From: a virus
DNA length: 64,000 bases
Direction: 5' to 3' (one strand)
Virus record (IMG/VR): IMGVR_UViG_3300023174_000068
Coordinates: 32,001-96,000 of that record
The position numbers were made by a program, and so were the translations under genes. Of the stretch, positions 30,627 through 50,065 are shown piece after piece. Position 1 is the stretch's first letter. Each line of letters begins with the position of its first letter. The notes under the pieces were generated by a model, which was given only the letters and a program-made list of their open reading frames with translations, made no database searches and was not told the origin of the DNA.

Positions 30627-32405
30627 ACAATCTCATCGGCAATTTTCATGTTACATAAAATACTATTTGATAATGACAAAAACATTATGATAGTTGCAAA
30701 CAAAGGTGACACAGCTGTCGAGATTGTTGATAAAGTAAAATCAATTTATTCACTACTGCCATTTTTTCTAAAACCCGGTGTCAAAACTTGGAATCAAAAA
30801 TCTTTAACTTTTGAAAACGGTTGTCGTATCAAAACTTCAGCTAGAACAAAAACACCAGCGATTGGTTTTACTATTGATGTGCTCTATTTAGATGAGTTTG
30901 CCCATATTCCATCAAATATCATTGAACCATACTACACGGCGGCTTTTCCAACTACAGCGGCGGTTCAGAACTCAAAAATAATTATAACATCAACTCCAAA
31001 TGGAATGAATCTATTTCACAGGCTACTTACAGATGCTGAAAGACCAGAAGGTGATCCGCAAAAAAACAACTATAAACCAATGCGGGTTTATTGGTACCAA
31101 GTTCCTGGAAGATTCGTTACCTACATTAGATTAAATTCACATAAACTATGGGATAACAAGTTAACGAAAGAAGATGTGTTAGAACAATGTAGGGAAAAAT
31201 TTGAAATGCGAACAAAAGTAGAAATGATTTGGAATTCTGATTTACAAAAAGACATCATTTGTGTTTATAATAATGAGCACTGCTCTGATGACGAAGTAAA
31301 ATCAACTATGATAAAGACCGAGAACAGAGAAATTTCAATTAGGTTAATTTCAGAAGTCACTACCTGGAAAGAAGAAGCTATCAAGGATATTGGAGGCGAA
31401 GACGCCTTTAATCAGGAATATGGTCTAAGGTTTATAAACGAATCTAAATCCTTATTAAATGAATCCATTATCGATGAGCTATTGAGGAGTAAGAAAAATT
31501 ATATTTTTGAGGAGATTGCTGAATTTGAGAGGATTAAGTTTGATTATTCAGACTTAAAATGGATAGATGATGAAGAAATTTATTTACCAATAAAAAGAAA
31601 GGATTACAAAATTGTAATATCTGTTGACTTAGCCGAAGGTCTAGGTCAAGATTACTCCGTAATTAACATTTTCAAAGTTGGCGTAAAACCAACGGATTTA
31701 ATAGAACTTCAAAAGGCTAAATACGAATCGATTGTTGATTTTTTTAGATTAGAACAAATTGGAATTTATCGAAGCAATATTATTTCAATAAAACAAGTAG
31801 CAGAACTTCTTTATCTACTAGCCTTCGAATTTTTTAATCCAGAAAATGTCAAAATTGTTTTAGAGTTAAACAACTATGGCAATACGCTGCTTGCAGAAAT
31901 GCCCCACGTCTTTGAAGGAAATAATGATTACGGTTCCTCAATTTTTATGAGATATAAACACAGAATTGATTCAAATGAAGAAAAAGTAGGTCTCAAAGTC
32001 GGTGAGAATAAAAATATTTTAGTCAAAGACTATCAGGACCTTATGTTGTCAAAATCATTTTATATAAACAACGAAGACACTATTAGAGAAATAACAACTT
32101 TTGTCAAGCACACAACCACTGCTGGAAATACAAGATATGCAGCAGATCACGGTCATGATGATTGTGTTATGACGATAGTCAACTCAACTTCGGTGTTCAA
32201 AAAACCAGAGTTTAGAGAAATCGTGGATGAATGGGCATCAAAAAATTTAGATAGAGAAAAATTAGACCACATTAATGAAATTCTAAAAAAAATTGACTTT
32301 GTAGAAGGCGTTGATTATTCAACATTTATAGAGACTAAAAATGCAATTAGATTAAAAAAATCTATGAGTAACCCAAATATAAATAACTGGTTTAAAAGGG
32401 ATTAA
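30189..32405 (+). CDS. terL: Terminase large subunit, C-terminal fragment preceded by IntC
   Basis: After SHN comes TISSAIF, then Walker B LYLDEFAH, motif III ITSTPNG, and nuclease motifs VDLAEGLGQDYS, LELNN and HDDCVM. Confidence 0.95.
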   Translation: MIKSVLIRIIKFLITFIERVELRNSSLDENDINKKILNSINVFGFKVRTDAGYEKLTDLHITQPYRHYVLKTDGYELSCADNHIVFDKDYNEVFVKDLVVNDIIQTESGLQRVISLKQDNFKSSMFDATVNHQNHRFYTNGILSHNTISSAIFMLHKILFDNDKNIMIVANKGDTAVEIVDKVKSIYSLLPFFLKPGVKTWNQKSLTFENGCRIKTSARTKTPAIGFTIDVLYLDEFAHIPSNIIEPYYTAAFPTTAAVQNSKIIITSTPNGMNLFHRLLTDAERPEGDPQKNNYKPMRVYWYQVPGRFVTYIRLNSHKLWDNKLTKEDVLEQCREKFEMRTKVEMIWNSDLQKDIICVYNNEHCSDDEVKSTMIKTENREISIRLISEVTTWKEEAIKDIGGEDAFNQEYGLRFINESKSLLNESIIDELLRSKKNYIFEEIAEFERIKFDYSDLKWIDDEEIYLPIKRKDYKIVISVDLAEGLGQDYSVINIFKVGVKPTDLIELQKAKYESIVDFFRLEQIGIYRSNIISIKQVAELLYLLAFEFFNPENVKIVLELNNYGNTLLAEMPHVFEGNNDYGSSIFMRYKHRIDSNEEKVGLKVGENKNILVKDYQDLMLSKSFYINNEDTIREITTFVKHTTTAGNTRYAADHGHDDCVMTIVNSTSVFKKPEFREIVDEWASKNLDREKLDHINEILKKIDFVEGVDYSTFIETKNAIRLKKSMSNPNINNWFKRD

Positions 32406-43139: not shown

Positions 43140-43452
43140 TCTTATTTCACTAATTTTCATTTTCTCTAATTCTTACTATATCTACCATTATAAAAGACTA
43201 GATGAACCGATTAGAGTCAGGGATTTCAATAAAAAATTAGATTTAGTTTATTATAGCCTTAAGCCTCTTTTTATAATCTGGCTCTTAATTGGTATATTTT
43301 TACAAGTTTCTAATATCTATTTAGTGCTATCTTTTTTGATTATTTTAAGATTTCCTTTATATTATACAAATAAATCATTGTATTCACGATATCACCGTAT
43401 TGTTCCTGTGGTAAACATCGTTCTACTTAGTTTGTTGTTGTTTAACTTATAG
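43126..43452 (+). CDS. Hypothetical membrane protein
   Basis: Several hydrophobic segments. Confidence 0.6.
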   Translation: MIMFNLISLIFIFSNSYYIYHYKRLDEPIRVRDFNKKLDLVYYSLKPLFIIWLLIGIFLQVSNIYLVLSFLIILRFPLYYTNKSLYSRYHRIVPVVNIVLLSLLLFNL

Positions 43453-43974
43453 GTTAAATTTTTTTAAGTGATCTTCTGTAATTATTATAAACTCAAATCC
43501 CTTTTTTTGACACCAAGAAATCATAGTGTCCCATTTTTGTTTATTTTTATAAGCCATTTTTAGATCGTATTCAAAGTTTTTGAGTTTCTTTCCCCTGTTT
43601 TCAGGAATTTCCAATCTGCCTTCATTTAGGGCTAACACCATGTTATATTCTTTTTGAGGTTTGACTTCAACTACTACCTTTTTTGTTAGAGTCTCATTAA
43701 TTTTCATTTCATAATAAAAGTCAGGATAGTACGAGTGTTCTTTTATTTTAGTATCACCTTTATCAAAGTGTGTCATCTGGTATGGAATTTTCAAACATTC
43801 CGCGCCCCAAATAGATATTTTATCATTGTGGTCTAACCAAGTCATTATCTTTTTCTCCCAACTGCTTCGAAAAAATACGCCTCCAAGTGAATTTAATTTC
43901 AGCACTTTTTCTTTAAACTTTGGAATATAATTGCCCTGGTTATAGTTTGAGTTGTTGGGTTTAGCGTTTATCAT
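43447..43974 (-). CDS. gp4: Head completion nuclease (gp4/TnsA-like)
   Basis: RSSWE, WGAE..KIPY, YYPDF, VEVKP, NKQKW and FIIITE. Confidence 0.85.
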   Translation of the reverse strand: MINAKPNNSNYNQGNYIPKFKEKVLKLNSLGGVFFRSSWEKKIMTWLDHNDKISIWGAECLKIPYQMTHFDKGDTKIKEHSYYPDFYYEMKINETLTKKVVVEVKPQKEYNMVLALNEGRLEIPENRGKKLKNFEYDLKMAYKNKQKWDTMISWCQKKGFEFIIITEDHLKKFNL

Positions 43975-45434: not shown

Positions 45435-46382
45435 TTATATTCTTTCACCAGTTACTGGATCATAATTTAGAATCAGTAGTTCGACTCCTTTTTCGGCTTT
45501 GCCTTTTGACTCATGATTATTCCCACCGTTTGCGGAACTTCTATTAACTTCCTTTTCAAACCAAAGATATTTATCTTTCGGTAATAACTCTTCTAAGAGT
45601 GGGAAATAATAGTATGATAATGACCATCTACTTTCAATACCTTTAATCAATTCTAAAAGTCTTCTGTGTGAGGCAGGTCCAAATACACCTTCTGCATCAG
45701 ACCCATACCAGAAAAGCCTCTTAGCATCGTCTTCGCCCTTTGATTCGTCAAATCTAGCATAAGGAGGGTCTAAATAAATGTAAGTTTCTGGGCTATCCCA
45801 TTTTAAGATTAGTTCTTGAAAATCAATATTGTTGAACTCGGTGATAGATTGTAGTTTCTGTGTATATTTATTTTTCTTTAATTTAGATATTAAAGATTCT
45901 AATTTAAGTTTATCCGTATCTTTTTTATACCCAGTAAATCCACCGCCTCGTGGATAGACACTGGAAAAACTTGAAGTGATAAGAAATGCGTAAATTGCAG
46001 CTCTTTTAAAGTCACCCATTTCAAAGTCATTGTTGTCTAAAAAATCATTGTCTACATACTTTCTATAGATAGATTTATAGAAATCCCATTTTTTTTGGGG
46101 ATCCGTTTCGGTTGTATTAAGAATTGTTTGTTTCAATTTTTCCAGAACATATAAAAACTTTTCCGGTTCAGCGCAACACTTCATTAGATTGACTTGGTGT
46201 CTATTTTTATCGTTATAAACCACATTTTCAAAATTTAATGTATCATCGTCCATGTAGGTAGCAAAAGAACCCGAAAACGGCTCGAGGTAATTTTTGACAC
46301 CTATTTTGGGTATTTTTTTGTTAATGAAGTCAATAAAAACGGAAGAACTCTTTCCTCCAAAATAAGAAATAACAGCGCACAT
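45435..46382 (-). CDS. dam: DNA adenine methyltransferase (Dam/D12 class)
   Basis: YFGGKS, EPFSGS, YND and YLDPPY. Confidence 0.85.
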   Translation of the reverse strand: MCAVISYFGGKSSSVFIDFINKKIPKIGVKNYLEPFSGSFATYMDDDTLNFENVVYNDKNRHQVNLMKCCAEPEKFLYVLEKLKQTILNTTETDPQKKWDFYKSIYRKYVDNDFLDNNDFEMGDFKRAAIYAFLITSSFSSVYPRGGGFTGYKKDTDKLKLESLISKLKKNKYTQKLQSITEFNNIDFQELILKWDSPETYIYLDPPYARFDESKGEDDAKRLFWYGSDAEGVFGPASHRRLLELIKGIESRWSLSYYYFPLLEELLPKDKYLWFEKEVNRSSANGGNNHESKGKAEKGVELLILNYDPVTGERI

Positions 46383-46460: not shown

Positions 46461-46961
46461 CTACAACTGGTCTTCTAGTGAGGGTCTTGTTTTTTTAATC
46501 AGTTCTAATCTAACTTTCATTAAAATTTTACCTAAATTATTCTCACCACTGTTGCCGCATTTTAGGCAATTACAATTTCCCCAAAAATTATCATGCCACC
46601 AGTTTTCTTCGACTAGTTCAAAACCACCAGTGTCAATTAGTTGTTGGGCTAAAGATTCATCAGAGAACTTTTGTGTTATTGCTAAATTCATAAAATCTAA
46701 TTTTTTTTCACCCCAATCTGTTCGGAGTTTGACTCTTTGTCCTATTTTTTTAACATCTTGGGCTAGTGGAATTTTTGAAATAAGTTCTCGTAAATCCGGA
46801 GCAGTGTAGTATTTTCCATCTATAAATTGCAGGGTGTTTACTTTTAGGGCAACATAGAAGTGCTCTACAGATGGGTAAATGATTCCTTGGTGTTCTATTT
46901 TACACGGGTAGAAATTAGAAAGAAAGTAATATCGACCTTGAAATTTCGTTATCTTTGACAT
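46461..46961 (-). CDS. NADAR (YbiA-like) family protein
   Basis: FLSNFY, SVEHFY, KF, LVEEN..HDNFWG and GENNLGKILMKVR. Start placed at MSKITKF. Confidence 0.88.
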   Translation of the reverse strand: MSKITKFQGRYYFLSNFYPCKIEHQGIIYPSVEHFYVALKVNTLQFIDGKYYTAPDLRELISKIPLAQDVKKIGQRVKLRTDWGEKKLDFMNLAITQKFSDESLAQQLIDTGGFELVEENWWHDNFWGNCNCLKCGNSGENNLGKILMKVRLELIKKTRPSLEDQL

Positions 46962-46984
46962 ATAGATTATATATTGTAAAAAGT

Positions 46985-47009
46985 AAAAGTCCACTCTAAG
47001 TGGACTTTT
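46985..47009 (-). terminator. Terminator downstream of the tmRNA
   Basis: AAAAGTCCACT-cta-AGTGGACTTTT. Confidence 0.85.
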
Positions 47010-47013
47010 CAAT

Positions 47014-47380
47014 TGGTGGAGATGACGTTGCACTGCCCAACGTGTCTTCTTTAGTTGATAATAACTATTCGTTCACAAGCTTAGTCACTTTTTCTAAAGT
47101 GGCAAAATAGATGGTTTTTTTGAAAAAACTTCTAAAAACTAACAAAAACCGGTTCCAAATTTACTGTCTGGTTCAGTTGTAGATTTTTTACAATTAAGCA
47201 AATTGTAGCTCTTCTACTTTGAGCAGGTTGTTTTGTAGGGCCGCTACTAAATCTTCACGAGTTCCTACTTGATTTGTGTTGCCATTTACGACAGTGTTAT
47301 CTAATTTATTAGTCGGATATTTAACAAGCCGACACTTGCATAAAAACCACCACACTACGAATCTATTCTATGACATCCCC
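47014..47380 (-). ncRNA. ssrA: tmRNA (367 nt)
   Basis: 5' GGGGAUG pairs with 3' CAUCUCC-A-CCA (G3:U70, discriminator A). T-arm ACGUUG-GGCAGUG-CAACGU; pk1-like stem GUCGG/CCGAC; tag ORF at 47283-47194. Confidence 0.9.
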
Positions 47381-47428
47381 AAATGTGTTTCAATTTATAT
47401 ATCATATATTACAAACCAAAAAAAGTTG

Positions 47429-47983
47429 TTAAAAAGGAAGTCTGCTAGAATTGCTTTCATCACCTATATAGAATTCAAAAACAAGAACCCCGGTAGAAGC
47501 ACTTTGCCAAATATCAAAATCACACTCGTATTCAGATAGAACATCTTTTTTAAGTTTGTTAGCCACATCTAAAGCCGAAATAACGGCTTTAAGCGTTGTC
47601 GTTTTTGGCAAATGGCATTCTATAATAATTTCTTCGTGTTTTTTTGATGTCACTCTGACGTCTTTTAATCCGGCGTTTCTAAACATTTGTCTAAGTAGTG
47701 AGTGTAGGTTTTCTAAATCGTCTTTGTCATCTTCTTCGTAATCTGAGTAATCGTCGTAATCGTTATCTGAATTAAACTTAGGATTGGAAGATTTACCTAA
47801 TTTCTCAAAATCGCTCTCATCATACCAATCATCGTAGTAACCATAATCTTTTGTAGAATCGTCTTCATAATCATACCCACCTTTGTCATTTTGGTTATTA
47901 GCAGGTAGATCATCGTTTAAGTGACTCAGGTCATCTTTTCGAATAGCCTCTTTAATAAATGTATTAAATTGTTTAATTTTCAT
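47429..47983 (-). CDS. Acidic hypothetical protein with capsid-targeting-like leader
   Basis: MKIKQFNTFIKE; Asp/Tyr-rich linker. Confidence 0.7.
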   Translation of the reverse strand: MKIKQFNTFIKEAIRKDDLSHLNDDLPANNQNDKGGYDYEDDSTKDYGYYDDWYDESDFEKLGKSSNPKFNSDNDYDDYSDYEEDDKDDLENLHSLLRQMFRNAGLKDVRVTSKKHEEIIIECHLPKTTTLKAVISALDVANKLKKDVLSEYECDFDIWQSASTGVLVFEFYIGDESNSSRLPF

Positions 47984-49473
47984 TATTTTAATTCTATTTT
48001 AAGGTATGTTTTGTCGAATGAACAAGCATCTGACAATTTATATTTTGTTAAAATATCCTGGATATTAGCAATACCCATATATACATAATCTAAATTTGGT
48101 TCTTCTAAGTCTATTCTAATAAAAACTTTATCCAACTCACCAATCACTTTTACTTCAAGCACCGATTTACTCTTTTTTATTTCGCTGATTAAGTCTTTAT
48201 ATTTAGCTAAAATCTCTTGATTAAAACCTACTTTTCTAACGGTAGGTAATGAGTCCCAATCTACTTTGGTTGAAGCTATGGCTAACTTTTCTAAGAATGT
48301 TATATTTATCATCTCAGAATTTCTGTGTTCGTTATAATATCCAACTGATATGTTAGTGCATTCGGCAATATCGTCCATAAAAGACGCCGAATCAGTGTAG
48401 ACTCCGGTAGTATCAAGTGACAAACTGACTCCACCTTTTGAGAATTCTTTAGCCAGAGCTTGTCCAAACTCGTTAGAACAGCACTGTCTACCTAATTGAT
48501 GTGTGATAACCGAAGTAGTTCTCCTTCTATCAAAAGAAACGCATCTTTTAATATTCTGTAGGTAATCAACGCTGGTAAAAATACCAGAAAGAGCATTTGA
48601 GCCAATTCCTCCTCTTTCTTCGCCTATAAAAAAGTAATATAAACCTGGGACATTATTTGCAATCATATATAACATAACCGTTGTGCCAGCTTTGTCGTCT
48701 GCTCCAAGTATTGACTTACCATCTGTATGTATGATTTCATCACCAGATCCAGTTTTTATAAGCCTAAAAGAATATCCTTCTTCGCTAACTCTACCTCTGA
48801 CAGATAGTAAGTTTATATCAACTTGCTCTCTATCTGCTGTATCTAAGTGACAGGTAAACATAGTTTGTGGATTACTCGGACCAACTATCTTGTAGTAATT
48901 TCCAATTTCATCTCTTTTAAGATCACTTGGTAAAAACTGCAACACCTCTTTTTCATGTCTACAATCTGGAAAGTGTGGGTATGTTTTTGTAGTAAGTGAT
49001 ATAAATGTTCTACGAACATCTTTTGGTGTAAAAGAGAAATTTGGAACTTCAATTTTTTCAGACTTTATTTGTTCACCAGAGTCTCCTTCATATGCGAGTT
49101 CATTGTACAGTGTGATAAAATCTCTTATATCTGCTTCGGTAAATAGGCTTGGCCAGTAGTATCTTAAAAATTTTCCAATTTTCATATCATATTTTTTGTC
49201 TTCTACAGTCACTAAAAAGCAAAAAGGTTTAGTCGACACATCAACGTAAGAAATTCCAAGTCCATTAAAATATTTAGAAGTAGGTTCACCCAGCCACATC
49301 ATTTCAAAGGCTAAGTATTCATTATTTTCTTCCATTGTAATAAGAATTTCTTCTAATTTTTTAGAATATACAATTCTTGGTGGTATCCCTTTGCCGAAGC
49401 CAAAGTTTTTGTCATTAGGGGCGATAGATTGTGTTGCTGATTCGAAAAATTGTCCGAACTTAAATAATTTCAT
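47983..49473 (-). CDS. M28-family zinc peptidase
   Basis: CHLDT, LGADDKAG, GEERGG, SFDR and YYNEH. Confidence 0.85.
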   Translation of the reverse strand: MKLFKFGQFFESATQSIAPNDKNFGFGKGIPPRIVYSKKLEEILITMEENNEYLAFEMMWLGEPTSKYFNGLGISYVDVSTKPFCFLVTVEDKKYDMKIGKFLRYYWPSLFTEADIRDFITLYNELAYEGDSGEQIKSEKIEVPNFSFTPKDVRRTFISLTTKTYPHFPDCRHEKEVLQFLPSDLKRDEIGNYYKIVGPSNPQTMFTCHLDTADREQVDINLLSVRGRVSEEGYSFRLIKTGSGDEIIHTDGKSILGADDKAGTTVMLYMIANNVPGLYYFFIGEERGGIGSNALSGIFTSVDYLQNIKRCVSFDRRRTTSVITHQLGRQCCSNEFGQALAKEFSKGGVSLSLDTTGVYTDSASFMDDIAECTNISVGYYNEHRNSEMINITFLEKLAIASTKVDWDSLPTVRKVGFNQEILAKYKDLISEIKKSKSVLEVKVIGELDKVFIRIDLEEPNLDYVYMGIANIQDILTKYKLSDACSFDKTYLKIELK

Positions 49474-49489
49474 AGAGTATATATTAAAT

Positions 49490-50065
49490 TTAAATATAGA
49501 TTATATTTCTGTTGATAGTGTCTATGAAAGCCCTGCCTGTTGCGGGTTTATTACTTTCAATAAAATCAACATCTTCATCGTTTAATGATTTGTTAGATAA
49601 TTCTCTTATTTTTGTCAAAATTTCCTGGTTTGGTGTAGTTGAAACATTTTTAGAATAACACCACACTATTGGGGTGTTTGATTGACTTTTTGCTTTACTA
49701 TTTTTCTTAGCAATTTCTGCCGCTCTTTTTAACACAAACTCTGGTATTATGTCATCTTTTAGTGCCTTAACAAGAACGTGGCTACCAGGAAATCCAGCGG
49801 CATGCAACCAAATATCTTTTTCACTGGGGTAGACACCACCTATTGGGTTAGCATTAGTGCCACAAAATTTTGACGTTAGAAAGTGATTTGATTCTTTGTT
49901 TCTACCCCAATAAACATCATAGATGTTATTTGGATTAAATTCGTCTACAATTTTTTGATGTTTAATATCAACGTTATTTTTTTGTAATTCTTTTAACTGA
50001 ATTGATATTAAATTTTCTAAAACTTGGTTTTTTGAAAAGTTATGAAACTTCTTTATTTTTTTCAT
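49490..50065 (-). CDS. NFACT RNA-binding (NFACT-R/DUF814) domain protein
   Basis: GRNKESNHFLT...DIWLHAAGFPGSHVLVK...AAEIA. Confidence 0.85.
   Translation of the reverse strand: MKKIKKFHNFSKNQVLENLISIQLKELQKNNVDIKHQKIVDEFNPNNIYDVYWGRNKESNHFLTSKFCGTNANPIGGVYPSEKDIWLHAAGFPGSHVLVKALKDDIIPEFVLKRAAEIAKKNSKAKSQSNTPIVWCYSKNVSTTPNQEILTKIRELSNKSLNDEDVDFIESNKPATGRAFIDTINRNIIYI

Follow-up and report, generated by a model that had tools for sequence, protein, structure and literature searches.

The stretch of DNA considered here, called the window, is the 64,000-nucleotide segment between positions 32,001 and 96,000 of the IMG/VR virus record IMGVR_UViG_3300023174_000068. From 47380 down to 47014, its minus strand carries a 367-nucleotide (nt) gene for a one-piece transfer-messenger RNA (tmRNA, ssrA), colinear, with the 5' acceptor strand at its start and CCA at its 3' end. 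The identification draws on the sequence itself, 86 distinct homologues, the covariation among them, and ARAGORN and Rfam matches to those relatives that have a canonical T-loop. Comparison of these sequences makes it likely that the gene encodes a functional tmRNA of very large phages related to LR745206.1 and LR756502.1. The features and genes placed below by window coordinates lie on the minus strand, and RNA position p corresponds to window position 47381-p.

Anatomy of the gene

The 5' strand of the acceptor stem, GGGGAUG (47374..47380), pairs at all seven positions with CAUCUCC (47018..47024), a helix that is also supported by covariation, and supplies the G3 of the G3:U70 pair, the identity element for alanine. 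The 3' end consists of the discriminator A73 and an encoded CCA (ACCA, 47014..47017). The T arm (47025..47043) directly adjoins the 3' acceptor strand and has a stem of six base pairs rather than five, ACGUUG/CAACGU, closing the 7-nt loop GGCAGUG (47031-47037). On the other side of the acceptor stem lies the D-loop analogue UCAUAGAAUAGA (47362..47373), which is without GG. An earlier note on this DNA, made from its letters alone, had claimed an intact alanyl acceptor stem with encoded CCA, a non-canonical T-loop and a D-loop analogue lacking GG; all of these hold on the minus strand.

Encoding of the CCA is not general in the family. ACCA is present in only eight of the 86 relatives, the others having ACAA (49), ACUA (25), ACUG (3) or ACUU (1), and most family members therefore need CCA addition.

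Helix P2 links the tRNA-like domain to the remainder of the molecule, and its 5' strand (47334..47361) forms 24 pairs with its 3' strand (47048..47080). Two-sided changes occur at nine of these pairs and 95-100% of alignment cells are paired. The 3' strand includes CUAAGCUUGUGAACGAAUA and is supported by covariation and by relatives aligned to the RF00023 consensus. Pseudoknot PK1 (47296..47333) follows, with GUCGG/CCGAC as stem 1 and GUUA/UAAC as stem 2; five of its nine pairs show two-sided changes, and the two stems are paired in 100% and 94.3% of cells. The hexamer GUAAAU (47284..47289) stands directly 5' of the resume codon GGC (47283..47281) and places U at -5 and A at -4. The tag reading frame (47197..47283) has 29 codons, about three times as many as is usual, encodes GNTNQVGTREDLVAALQNNLLKVEELQFA and ends at a UAA stop codon (47194..47196), which is TAA or TAG in relatives. 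A hairpin with the loop GAAGAUUUAGUA lies within the frame, across codons 6-16 (47236..47267), and has two-sided changes at five of eight pairs.

Beyond the tag, pseudoknot PK2 (47155..47177) is formed by ACUG/CAGU and CCAG/UUGG, with two-sided changes at seven of eight pairs and 78.8% and 93.9% of cells paired. A further hairpin (47086..47101) occupies the position of PK4, just 5' of the P2 return strand; four of its six pairs show two-sided changes and 97.2% of cells are paired, with no pseudoknot partner established. The gene is followed by an intrinsic terminator found in a terminator scan, an 11-pair hairpin with a T-run (46985..47009). Terminator-like sites number four in the region compared with 0.6 expected, and a hairpin is found 3' of the gene in relatives too.

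Homologues and covariation

Relatives were collected by exact-pattern scans of viral and metagenome contigs followed by an nhmmer profile, which gave 148 matches in 224 loci. Loci were kept if they held a complete gene, a fully paired (7/7) acceptor stem and G3:U70, which is thus a selection rule rather than a result; 120 passed and three failed. The 120 loci come from phage and metagenome DNA and represent 86 distinct RNAs, one of which (L026) is identical to the RNA of the window.

ARAGORN calls a tmRNA in four of the 86 members and misses 82. All four have the T-loop UUCGAAU or UUCGAGU together with GG in the D-loop, and the tags that the program reports for canonical-loop relatives, ATSNEVGTAEDLVSALRNNQLAKAELV and GNTNEVGSVEDLVFALRNNILKANRLAVA (starting ATSNEVGTAEDLVSALRNN and GNTNEVGSVEDLVFALRNN), begin at the codon homologous to the GGC of the window. 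One of the relatives called by ARAGORN, L067, also matches RF00023 at 50.4 bits, above the 47-bit cut-off. Because ARAGORN and Rfam accept these canonical-loop relatives, and the tag frame is the same, the identity of the gene and its resume codon are fixed. The check with ARAGORN and RF00023 that had been proposed for the locus thus came out negative for the gene of the window and positive for its canonical-loop relatives (four by ARAGORN, L067 by Rfam). The failure of both tools on the window is attributed to the rebuilt elbow described below.

Covariation was assessed in 42 distinct aligned sequences, with nested helices taken from RNAalifold and the pseudoknot stems added by hand. The 68 proposed pairs in 11 helices are paired in 95.7% of cases, compared with 35.9-47.7% after displacement of the 3' partners by 1-3 columns. 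Two-sided changes are seen at 37 of the 68 pairs; the mean in shuffles is 18.1, and none of 500 shuffles reaches 37. Helices P2 and PK1 (helices 2-5) account for 14 such pairs. The changes are spread over the molecule: the fifth acceptor pair is A-U in 31 sequences, G-C in six and G-U in five, stem 1 of PK1 alternates between A-U (27) and G-C (15), and stem 2 between C-G (20) and U-A (14). All six pairs of the T stem covary (97.5% paired), as do PK1, PK2 and the long P2 helix, in which GCARG pairs with CYUGU. The Rfam alignment of the relatives sets the block CUAAGCYUGURAAYGAAUA against its equivalent in standard tmRNA, the conserved CUAAGCAUGUAG. In its anatomy, the molecule is a one-piece tmRNA.

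A bacterial origin of the family was considered and rejected. A scan for the conserved tag stretch in 185,579 species of bacteria and archaea, represented by one genome apiece, returned 37 loci, none of which matched the family profile (E <= 1e-3); the scan used an exact tag pattern, which divergent relatives would escape. With that exact pattern, the family is seen only in phage and metagenome DNA.

The tag reading frame

The reading frame is preserved across the family in the manner of a translated sequence. The tag stop falls in one common column in all 42 aligned sequences. Insertions and deletions within the frame are six or three bases long, and single-base ones are located just 5' of GUAAAY. 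Entropy summed by codon position is 16.1, 16.1 and 22.5 for the first, second and third positions, respectively. The frame is not part of an ordinary open reading frame (ORF), because in 79 of the 86 relatives there is an in-frame stop codon 5' of the resume codon, at a varying distance. The hexamer directly before the resume codon conforms to NUAAAY in 75 of 86, which puts U at -5 and A at -4; in E. coli tmRNA, U85 and A86 are described as setting the tag frame (PMC2481249). The claim of the earlier note that translation resumes at GGC after GUAAAU and yields a tag of 29 amino acids is borne out by ARAGORN, which places the frame identically in four canonical-loop relatives.

Read out from this anchor, the tags are 27-30 residues long, with 61 distinct sequences among the 86 RNAs; in seven sequences the anchor is one codon off, and their true tags have one residue more than the read-out gives. 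The C-terminal residue is Val in 50, Ala in 35 and Ser in one, and the stop codon is TAA in 76 and TAG in ten. The tags are acidic, with a net charge of -2 to -5 in 49 of the 61 distinct sequences.

The same note had seen a buried degron in an internal LVAA motif, and here the comparison speaks against it. The stretch reads LVFA in nine and LVSA in two of the 42 aligned sequences, and it is constrained as RNA. In the hairpin within the frame, codons 9 and 14 pair with each other and exist in two versions, CGU with GCG (Arg9 and Ala14) and AAA with UUU (Lys9 and Phe14). The hairpin loop GAAGAUUUAGUA encodes EDLV, and the third position is invariant in two of these four codons and varies little in a third. 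Since the choice between Arg/Ala and Lys/Phe follows the paired helix, and three of the four EDLV codons vary little or not at all at the third position, much of the conservation of the LVAA region is at the RNA level.

Two other ideas about the tag were tried and set aside. An amphipathic helix has no support: with a hydrophobic moment of 0.145, the tag is equalled or exceeded by 75% of shuffles. Recoding of TAG occurs in some gut megaphages; there is no sign of it here, as the ORFs of the window are long under table 11 and ten of the 86 tags end with TAG at the usual stop column.

The elbow of the tRNA-like domain

The T-loop varies within the family, and the D-loop varies with it. The main type, NGCRNUN, is found in 57 of the 86 RNAs, and none of these has GG in the D-loop analogue. 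All seven RNAs with a canonical UUCRA-type T-loop have the D-loop GG, which is absent from the ten with other UUC-type loops and present in five of the 12 with other forms. The D-loop GG thus tracks the T-loop class, and therefore the loop and the D-loop change together. Within the NGCRNUN type, the most common sequence is GGCAGUA (31), followed by the GGCAGUG of the window (9) and GGCGGUA (5); the non-canonical loops UUCGUUA and AGCGAUA also occur in the family. Because the T stem of the main type has six pairs, the segment that runs from the conserved GAC up to the acceptor strand measures 19 nt and not 17. Both the outermost pair of this stem (A-U in 38, U-A in two, C-G in one) and the innermost (G-C in 35) are supported.

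The loop had been said to be known, in the form GGCRGUA, from alphaproteobacterial tmRNAs, and the sampled two-piece tmRNAs of that class agree in 12 of 12 cases. RF01849 matches 24 of 25 sampled alphaproteobacterial genomes, and the 12 RNAs fetched from these have the T-loop GGCAGUA (8) or GGCGGUA (4), all with a T stem of five base pairs and ACCA. Their D-loop is short, AAACAGGAUCGAC or a near variant, and has GG in 11 of 12; the twelfth was mis-anchored on the wrong copy of the acceptor. Burks et al. (2005, PMC1168896) mention U-to-G changes in the T-loop of the tmRNAs of Caulobacter and of the Reclinomonas mitochondrion, as well as a possible sixth T-stem pair in Dehalococcoides tmRNA.

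Because the phage RNA is in one piece, and because canonical and other loops exist inside the phage family, sequence comparison points to convergence of the phage elbow on the alphaproteobacterial loop rather than to transfer. The loop is not a phage-specific device, since in alphaproteobacteria the cellular tmRNAs have these same seven nucleotides as a rule. This argues that the GGCRGUA-type loop may simply be a viable alternative elbow, and lends no support to the proposal that it evades host anti-tRNA nucleases. With G in place of U54 and U55, the RNA can receive none of the host modifications that the T-loop of E. coli tmRNA carries.

In an unrooted tree of the RNA body, built without the tRNA-like domain and with a weak backbone, the loop classes cluster, requiring nine changes compared with 24.4 in shuffles; the tree shows neither a single origin of the loop nor the order, direction or number of the changes. 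Comparison of seven phage SmpB proteins according to the T-loop type of their partner RNA revealed only differences between lineages. We read the rebuilt elbow, with its GGCRGUR loop, 6-bp stem and D-loop without GG, as a variant of this lineage whose parts have evolved together inside the tRNA-like domain.

Two Flavobacteriaceae tmRNAs, sampled from the phylum of the predicted host, have canonical elbows, and for one of them ARAGORN gives a tag of nine codons, GESNFAMAA. For a Flavobacteriaceae gene (L225, 1503-1894, minus strand), the program reports the tag VNIERKAL at the implausible position 225-251 of the gene, and the resume codon is probably mis-called.

Partner proteins in related records

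Trans-translation by tmRNA involves the protein SmpB, and a gene for it (PF01668, over cut-off) is present in seven of ten related records (4/5 and 3/5 in two sets), among them the two published genomes that are complete. It is missing from three fragments, of 74, 154 and 242 kb, the last of which shares its RNA with a 483-kb record that does bear smpB. The phage SmpB is of full length, has a basic C-terminal tail, and matches the Aquifex SmpB structure 1p6v with E = 1.8e-37.

No other tmRNA was found to accompany these proteins. RF00023 exceeds its cut-off in none of five related records, four of which encode SmpB, and the sub-threshold matches are mostly 13-92 nt long. The present RNA is, on sequence grounds, the sole candidate partner for the SmpB of those records. 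ARAGORN is the program with which Al-Shayeb et al. assigned the tmRNAs of huge phages (PMC7162821), and it makes no call in the fetched sequence surrounding the match in LR745206.1 and LR756502.1. For the SmpB of these published 634-kb and 642-kb genomes, the present RNA would be the missing tmRNA partner.

Genes for translation and proteolysis were sought in the same five records, the window's own record included. The CCA-adding-enzyme family (PF01743) is present in three of the five. ClpP is encoded in all five, in the window's own record at a site outside the window. An ORF of about 710 amino acids with a weak match to the ClpX family is found in four of the five, and its copy in LR745206.1 contains AAA, AAA_lid_9, a UVR motif, AAA_2 and ClpB_D2-small, an arrangement that identifies it as a double-AAA+ ClpC-like ATPase.

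Each phage has two or three ClpP paralogues, for example at G000:C1:120865-121401 (the window's own record), W02:364599-365000 and G002:81468-81875. A short ClpP-like copy (E ~1e-27) is located 2-3 kb from smpB in two of the genomes.

Phage lineage, neighbouring genes and expression

The window, from a giant lake phage, is part of a virus record of 131,438 bases, which CheckV estimates to be 23% complete. Among its genes is one for a T4-type major capsid protein (Gp23 family, E = 3.4e-29). A faint similarity to a prohead protease family, below threshold, is seen next to the tmRNA on its upstream side. The capsid gene and the virus record uphold the description of the RNA as a phage tmRNA. The only records of the GenBank phage collection that match the locus are LR745206.1 (634,780 bases; 74.4% identity) and LR756502.1 (642,428 bases; 70.9%). 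The 634- and 642-kb genomes are placed in the Mahaphage clade with predicted Bacteroidetes hosts (Al-Shayeb et al. 2020, PMC7162821).

The order of genes at the locus is the capsid gene, a gene for an NFACT-R protein, a peptidase (phrog_4191), a 184-codon gene, the tmRNA, a NADAR gene and a D12 methyltransferase. The neighbouring genes recur in 68-112 of the fetched loci, and the tmRNA is therefore a core gene of this lineage.

The NFACT-R protein (49490-50065, PF05670, E = 1.2e-10) has 191 amino acids, little beyond the domain itself, and is matched by tblastn in 80 loci. Its gene has the capsid gene on one side and the peptidase on the other, at a distance of 2.1 kb from the tmRNA. In yeast, the NFACT-R protein Jlp2 has been described as a non-canonical release factor for stalled ribosomes (preprint 10.1101/2025.09.04.673968). 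By analogy, this suggests that the phage NFACT-R could be a second phage-encoded ribosome-rescue activity beside ssrA. The peptidase (47983-49473, 496 amino acids, phrog_4191, E = 2.6e-61) is found in 112 loci. It has no Pfam match and a weak likeness to structures of M20 tripeptidases, or peptidase T (3rza, E = 8e-4).

Directly 3' of the tmRNA terminator is the gene for the NADAR-domain protein (46461-46958, PF08719, E = 2.7e-21), which occurs in 106 loci. It probably starts with the ATG at 46958; the ORF listed from a GTG (46461..47033) overlaps the 3' end of the tmRNA. Downstream of the tmRNA-NADAR pair lie genes for a D12-class N6-adenine DNA methyltransferase (45435-46382, PF02086) and for a protein with a TnsA-like endonuclease N-terminal domain (43447-43974, PF08722).

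Upstream of the RNA, the sequence TAnnTTTG is located 18-37 nt 5' of the RNA start in 61 of 84 distinct relatives, compared with a mean of 6.2 and a maximum of 13 in shuffles, and in 45 of these 61 a TTTG box lies 17-23 nt further upstream. TAnnTTTG is presumably the Bacteroidota promoter consensus, which would fit the published host prediction. A sigma-70-type promoter match at 47393..47365 was rejected: its -10 box lies inside the mature RNA, and the six such matches compare with 5.9 expected in shuffles.

Among metatranscriptomes, library X20 contains a contig of 317 nt that lies wholly within the gene (47030-47345). Sequence flanking the gene is not covered in X20, which does not count as evidence for a discrete transcript. 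RNA runs X3 and X4 contain a 14.5-kb contig, as in the DNA run, and a 2.1-kb contig; both run through the neighbouring genes and are uninformative on transcription.

Proposed function and alternative explanations

The gene, its fold, the conserved frame and the partner genes in related records are direct results of the comparison; how the RNA is charged, tags proteins and decides what becomes of them is inferred from the established tmRNA pathway. The RNA would be transcribed from its own promoter, ended by its own terminator, and processed, with CCA added where needed. Its tRNA-like end (G3:U70, A73 and CCA) would then be charged with alanine, presumably by the host alanyl-tRNA synthetase (AlaRS). 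Together with EF-Tu and SmpB, most likely the phage's own, the charged RNA would be delivered to stalled ribosomes with an empty A site. Translation would resume at GGC, positioned by the upstream U(-5)A(-4), so that alanine and the 29 encoded residues are added to the truncated protein, and termination at UAA would free the ribosome.

What happens to the tagged protein is less certain. A non-polar C-terminus is typical of tmRNA degrons. Because the tags end in Val or Ala and the phages have genes for ClpP and a ClpC-like ATPase, Clp-dependent degradation is the first guess; that Clp-type proteases degrade the tagged proteins through this C-terminus is a tentative proposal, with somewhat less than an even chance of being right. 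In the main rival account, which would be real trans-translation without degradation and takes up the redirected or weakened proteolysis of the earlier note, the long tag is no degradation signal, ribosomes are freed, and the truncated proteins are stable, sequestered or recognised by a phage factor. No tag of the family ends in Ala-Ala, as does the GESNFAMAA sampled from the host phylum, the tags are long (27-30 residues) and acidic, and neither Lon nor ClpX (over cut-off) was found in any of the five related records searched. However, Val or Ala is last in 85 of the 86 tags, the related records do encode ClpP and a ClpC-like ATPase, and the long tags of Mycoplasma, which end in FA, are degraded by Lon. 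A tag that does not lead to degradation is accordingly considered improbable. A more far-reaching proposal is that these giant phages run a private system for rescue and clean-up, consisting of their own tmRNA, SmpB, NFACT-R, peptidase, and ClpP with the ClpC-like ATPase, in which the elbow favours the phage SmpB without modification of the T-loop by the host, and the tag is read by phage factors. This is speculative and rather unlikely in its entirety; if true, the GGCRGUA loop of alphaproteobacteria and phages would be a second stable solution for a tRNA elbow.

Several observations weigh against a functional tmRNA or parts of its proposed role. ARAGORN reports no gene in the whole window, Rfam has no match there at gathering thresholds, RF00023 and RF01849 included, and a search of 1 kb at E <= 10 gives 11 weak matches, none from a tmRNA family; RF00023 likewise has no match in the whole 131,438-base record. 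The folding energy of the single sequence resembles that of shuffles (z = -0.25, with 36 of 100 shuffles as good or better). As the detectors fail and the single-sequence fold is weak, the case rests on comparison with relatives. The 6-bp T stem produces a stack of 13 base pairs with the acceptor stem, which EF-Tu and AlaRS would have to accept. Third positions are invariant or nearly so at codons E5, V6, E10, L12 and V13, and part of the apparent conservation of the tag peptide is at the RNA level. SmpB was not found in the window's own 131-kb record, which is a fragment; in LR745206.1, smpB is about 128 kb from ssrA, beyond the reach of such a fragment. AlaRS is represented in one of the five records searched, by a fragmentary match only, and the absence of Lon and ClpX from them also counts here. 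The region upstream of the window's own gene has no exact TAnnTTTG, and the contig from library X20 is no proof of transcription, given that RNA libraries can contain DNA.

A further alternative is a decoy, a tmRNA-like RNA that mainly titrates host SmpB or blocks trans-translation in the host and does not itself tag proteins. The altered elbow and the T stem, longer by one pair, could impair normal function, and a phage RNA consisting only of the tRNA-like domain is on record in mycobacteriophage DS6A and is proposed to act in this way (PMC4131195). Against this, the full mRNA-like domain is kept, with PK1, U(-5)A(-4), a frame-preserving ORF and a common stop column, the phages carry their own SmpB, and the same loop works in alphaproteobacterial tmRNAs; a decoy is thus very improbable. 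The last alternative is that there is no tmRNA at all, and that the site holds a small protein gene (the 53-codon ORF 47194..47355), the tRNA-like remnant of an integration site, or a chance resemblance. That ORF and the silence of ARAGORN and Rfam are what it would explain. It leaves aside the covarying helices, the in-frame upstream stops at varying places in 79 of 86 relatives, the single-base indels just 5' of GUAAAY, the full-length gene with its own terminator and conserved synteny near the capsid gene, and the relatives that pass both ARAGORN and Rfam. In our reading it is refuted by the covariation, the family census and the upstream stops, and its probability is negligible. A functional one-piece tmRNA remains the explanation that we favour. 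That a phage carries tmRNA, SmpB and components of Clp suggests that its infection may be limited by stalled ribosomes, and that it controls the fate of truncated proteins.

Comparison with known tmRNAs

With the standard one-piece tmRNA (RF00023), the phage RNA has in common its single piece of about 370 nt, G3:U70, A73 and CCA, the long P2 containing the CUAAGC..UGU block, a PK1 that precedes the resume codon, U(-5)A(-4), a tag with a non-polar end, and further pseudoknots and hairpins. Complete relatives also have the gene for the partner SmpB. In contrast to the standard form, the T-loop of the window is GGCAGUG and not UUCRANY, the T stem has six base pairs instead of five, the D-loop is without GG, and the tag has 29 codons compared with nine in the sampled Flavobacteriaceae (GESNFAMAA); the gene of the window also lies below every Rfam threshold.

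The two-piece tmRNA of alphaproteobacteria (RF01849) is similar in the GGCRGUA loop and its closing G-C pair, and the loop is exact in 36 of the 86 phage relatives. However, the alphaproteobacterial genes are circularly permuted, and their RNAs are in two pieces with a 5-bp T stem and GG in the D-loop. The GGCRGUA loop is thus a feature in common with RF01849 and not a sign of membership, and the window itself has GGCAGUG.

Tags of unusual length are found in Mycoplasma, where they have about 27 residues, end in FA and are specific for Lon. The tag of the window resembles them in its length and FA ending, whereas most tags of the family end in V (50 of 86), and Lon was found in none of the five records.

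Phage ssrA genes are known from Bacillus phage G and from Bxz1-like mycobacteriophages, and huge phages are reported to have smpB also (PMC4131195, PMC12484599, PMC7162821). The tag of phage G, AKLNITNNELQVA, is given as 13 residues (PMC12484599). As far as these sources describe them, the known phage tmRNAs were found by ARAGORN or tFind and hence have a detectable tRNA-like domain, whereas the present family is mostly missed. Phage tmRNAs, the SmpB of huge phages, the alphaproteobacterial loop and long tags are already in print. In the open literature, supplements and subscription journals aside, no prior description of the present tmRNA subfamily, or of the string GGCRGUA, was found.

With 82 of 86 members missed by standard finders, a model built on the family would recover the gene across phage catalogues. 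The family is also of use for the study of the elbow itself. It spans the range from UUCGAAU with the D-loop GG to GGCRGUA without it, and thus provides a natural series on the contact between T-loop and D-loop, with which one can also ask how a stack of 13 base pairs, acceptor and T stem together, is accommodated by SmpB, EF-Tu and AlaRS.

Two of the collected loci (L054, 1101-1478, and L073, 3725-4102, both on the minus strand) hold a phage tmRNA of another kind, whose T-loop is canonical. ARAGORN made no call on L054, the sole copy that was run, and the RNA scores 68.2 bits with RF00023. The two contigs are 294 kb and 129 kb long. This RNA has only the P2 block in common with the present family, and the 294-kb record encodes SmpB.

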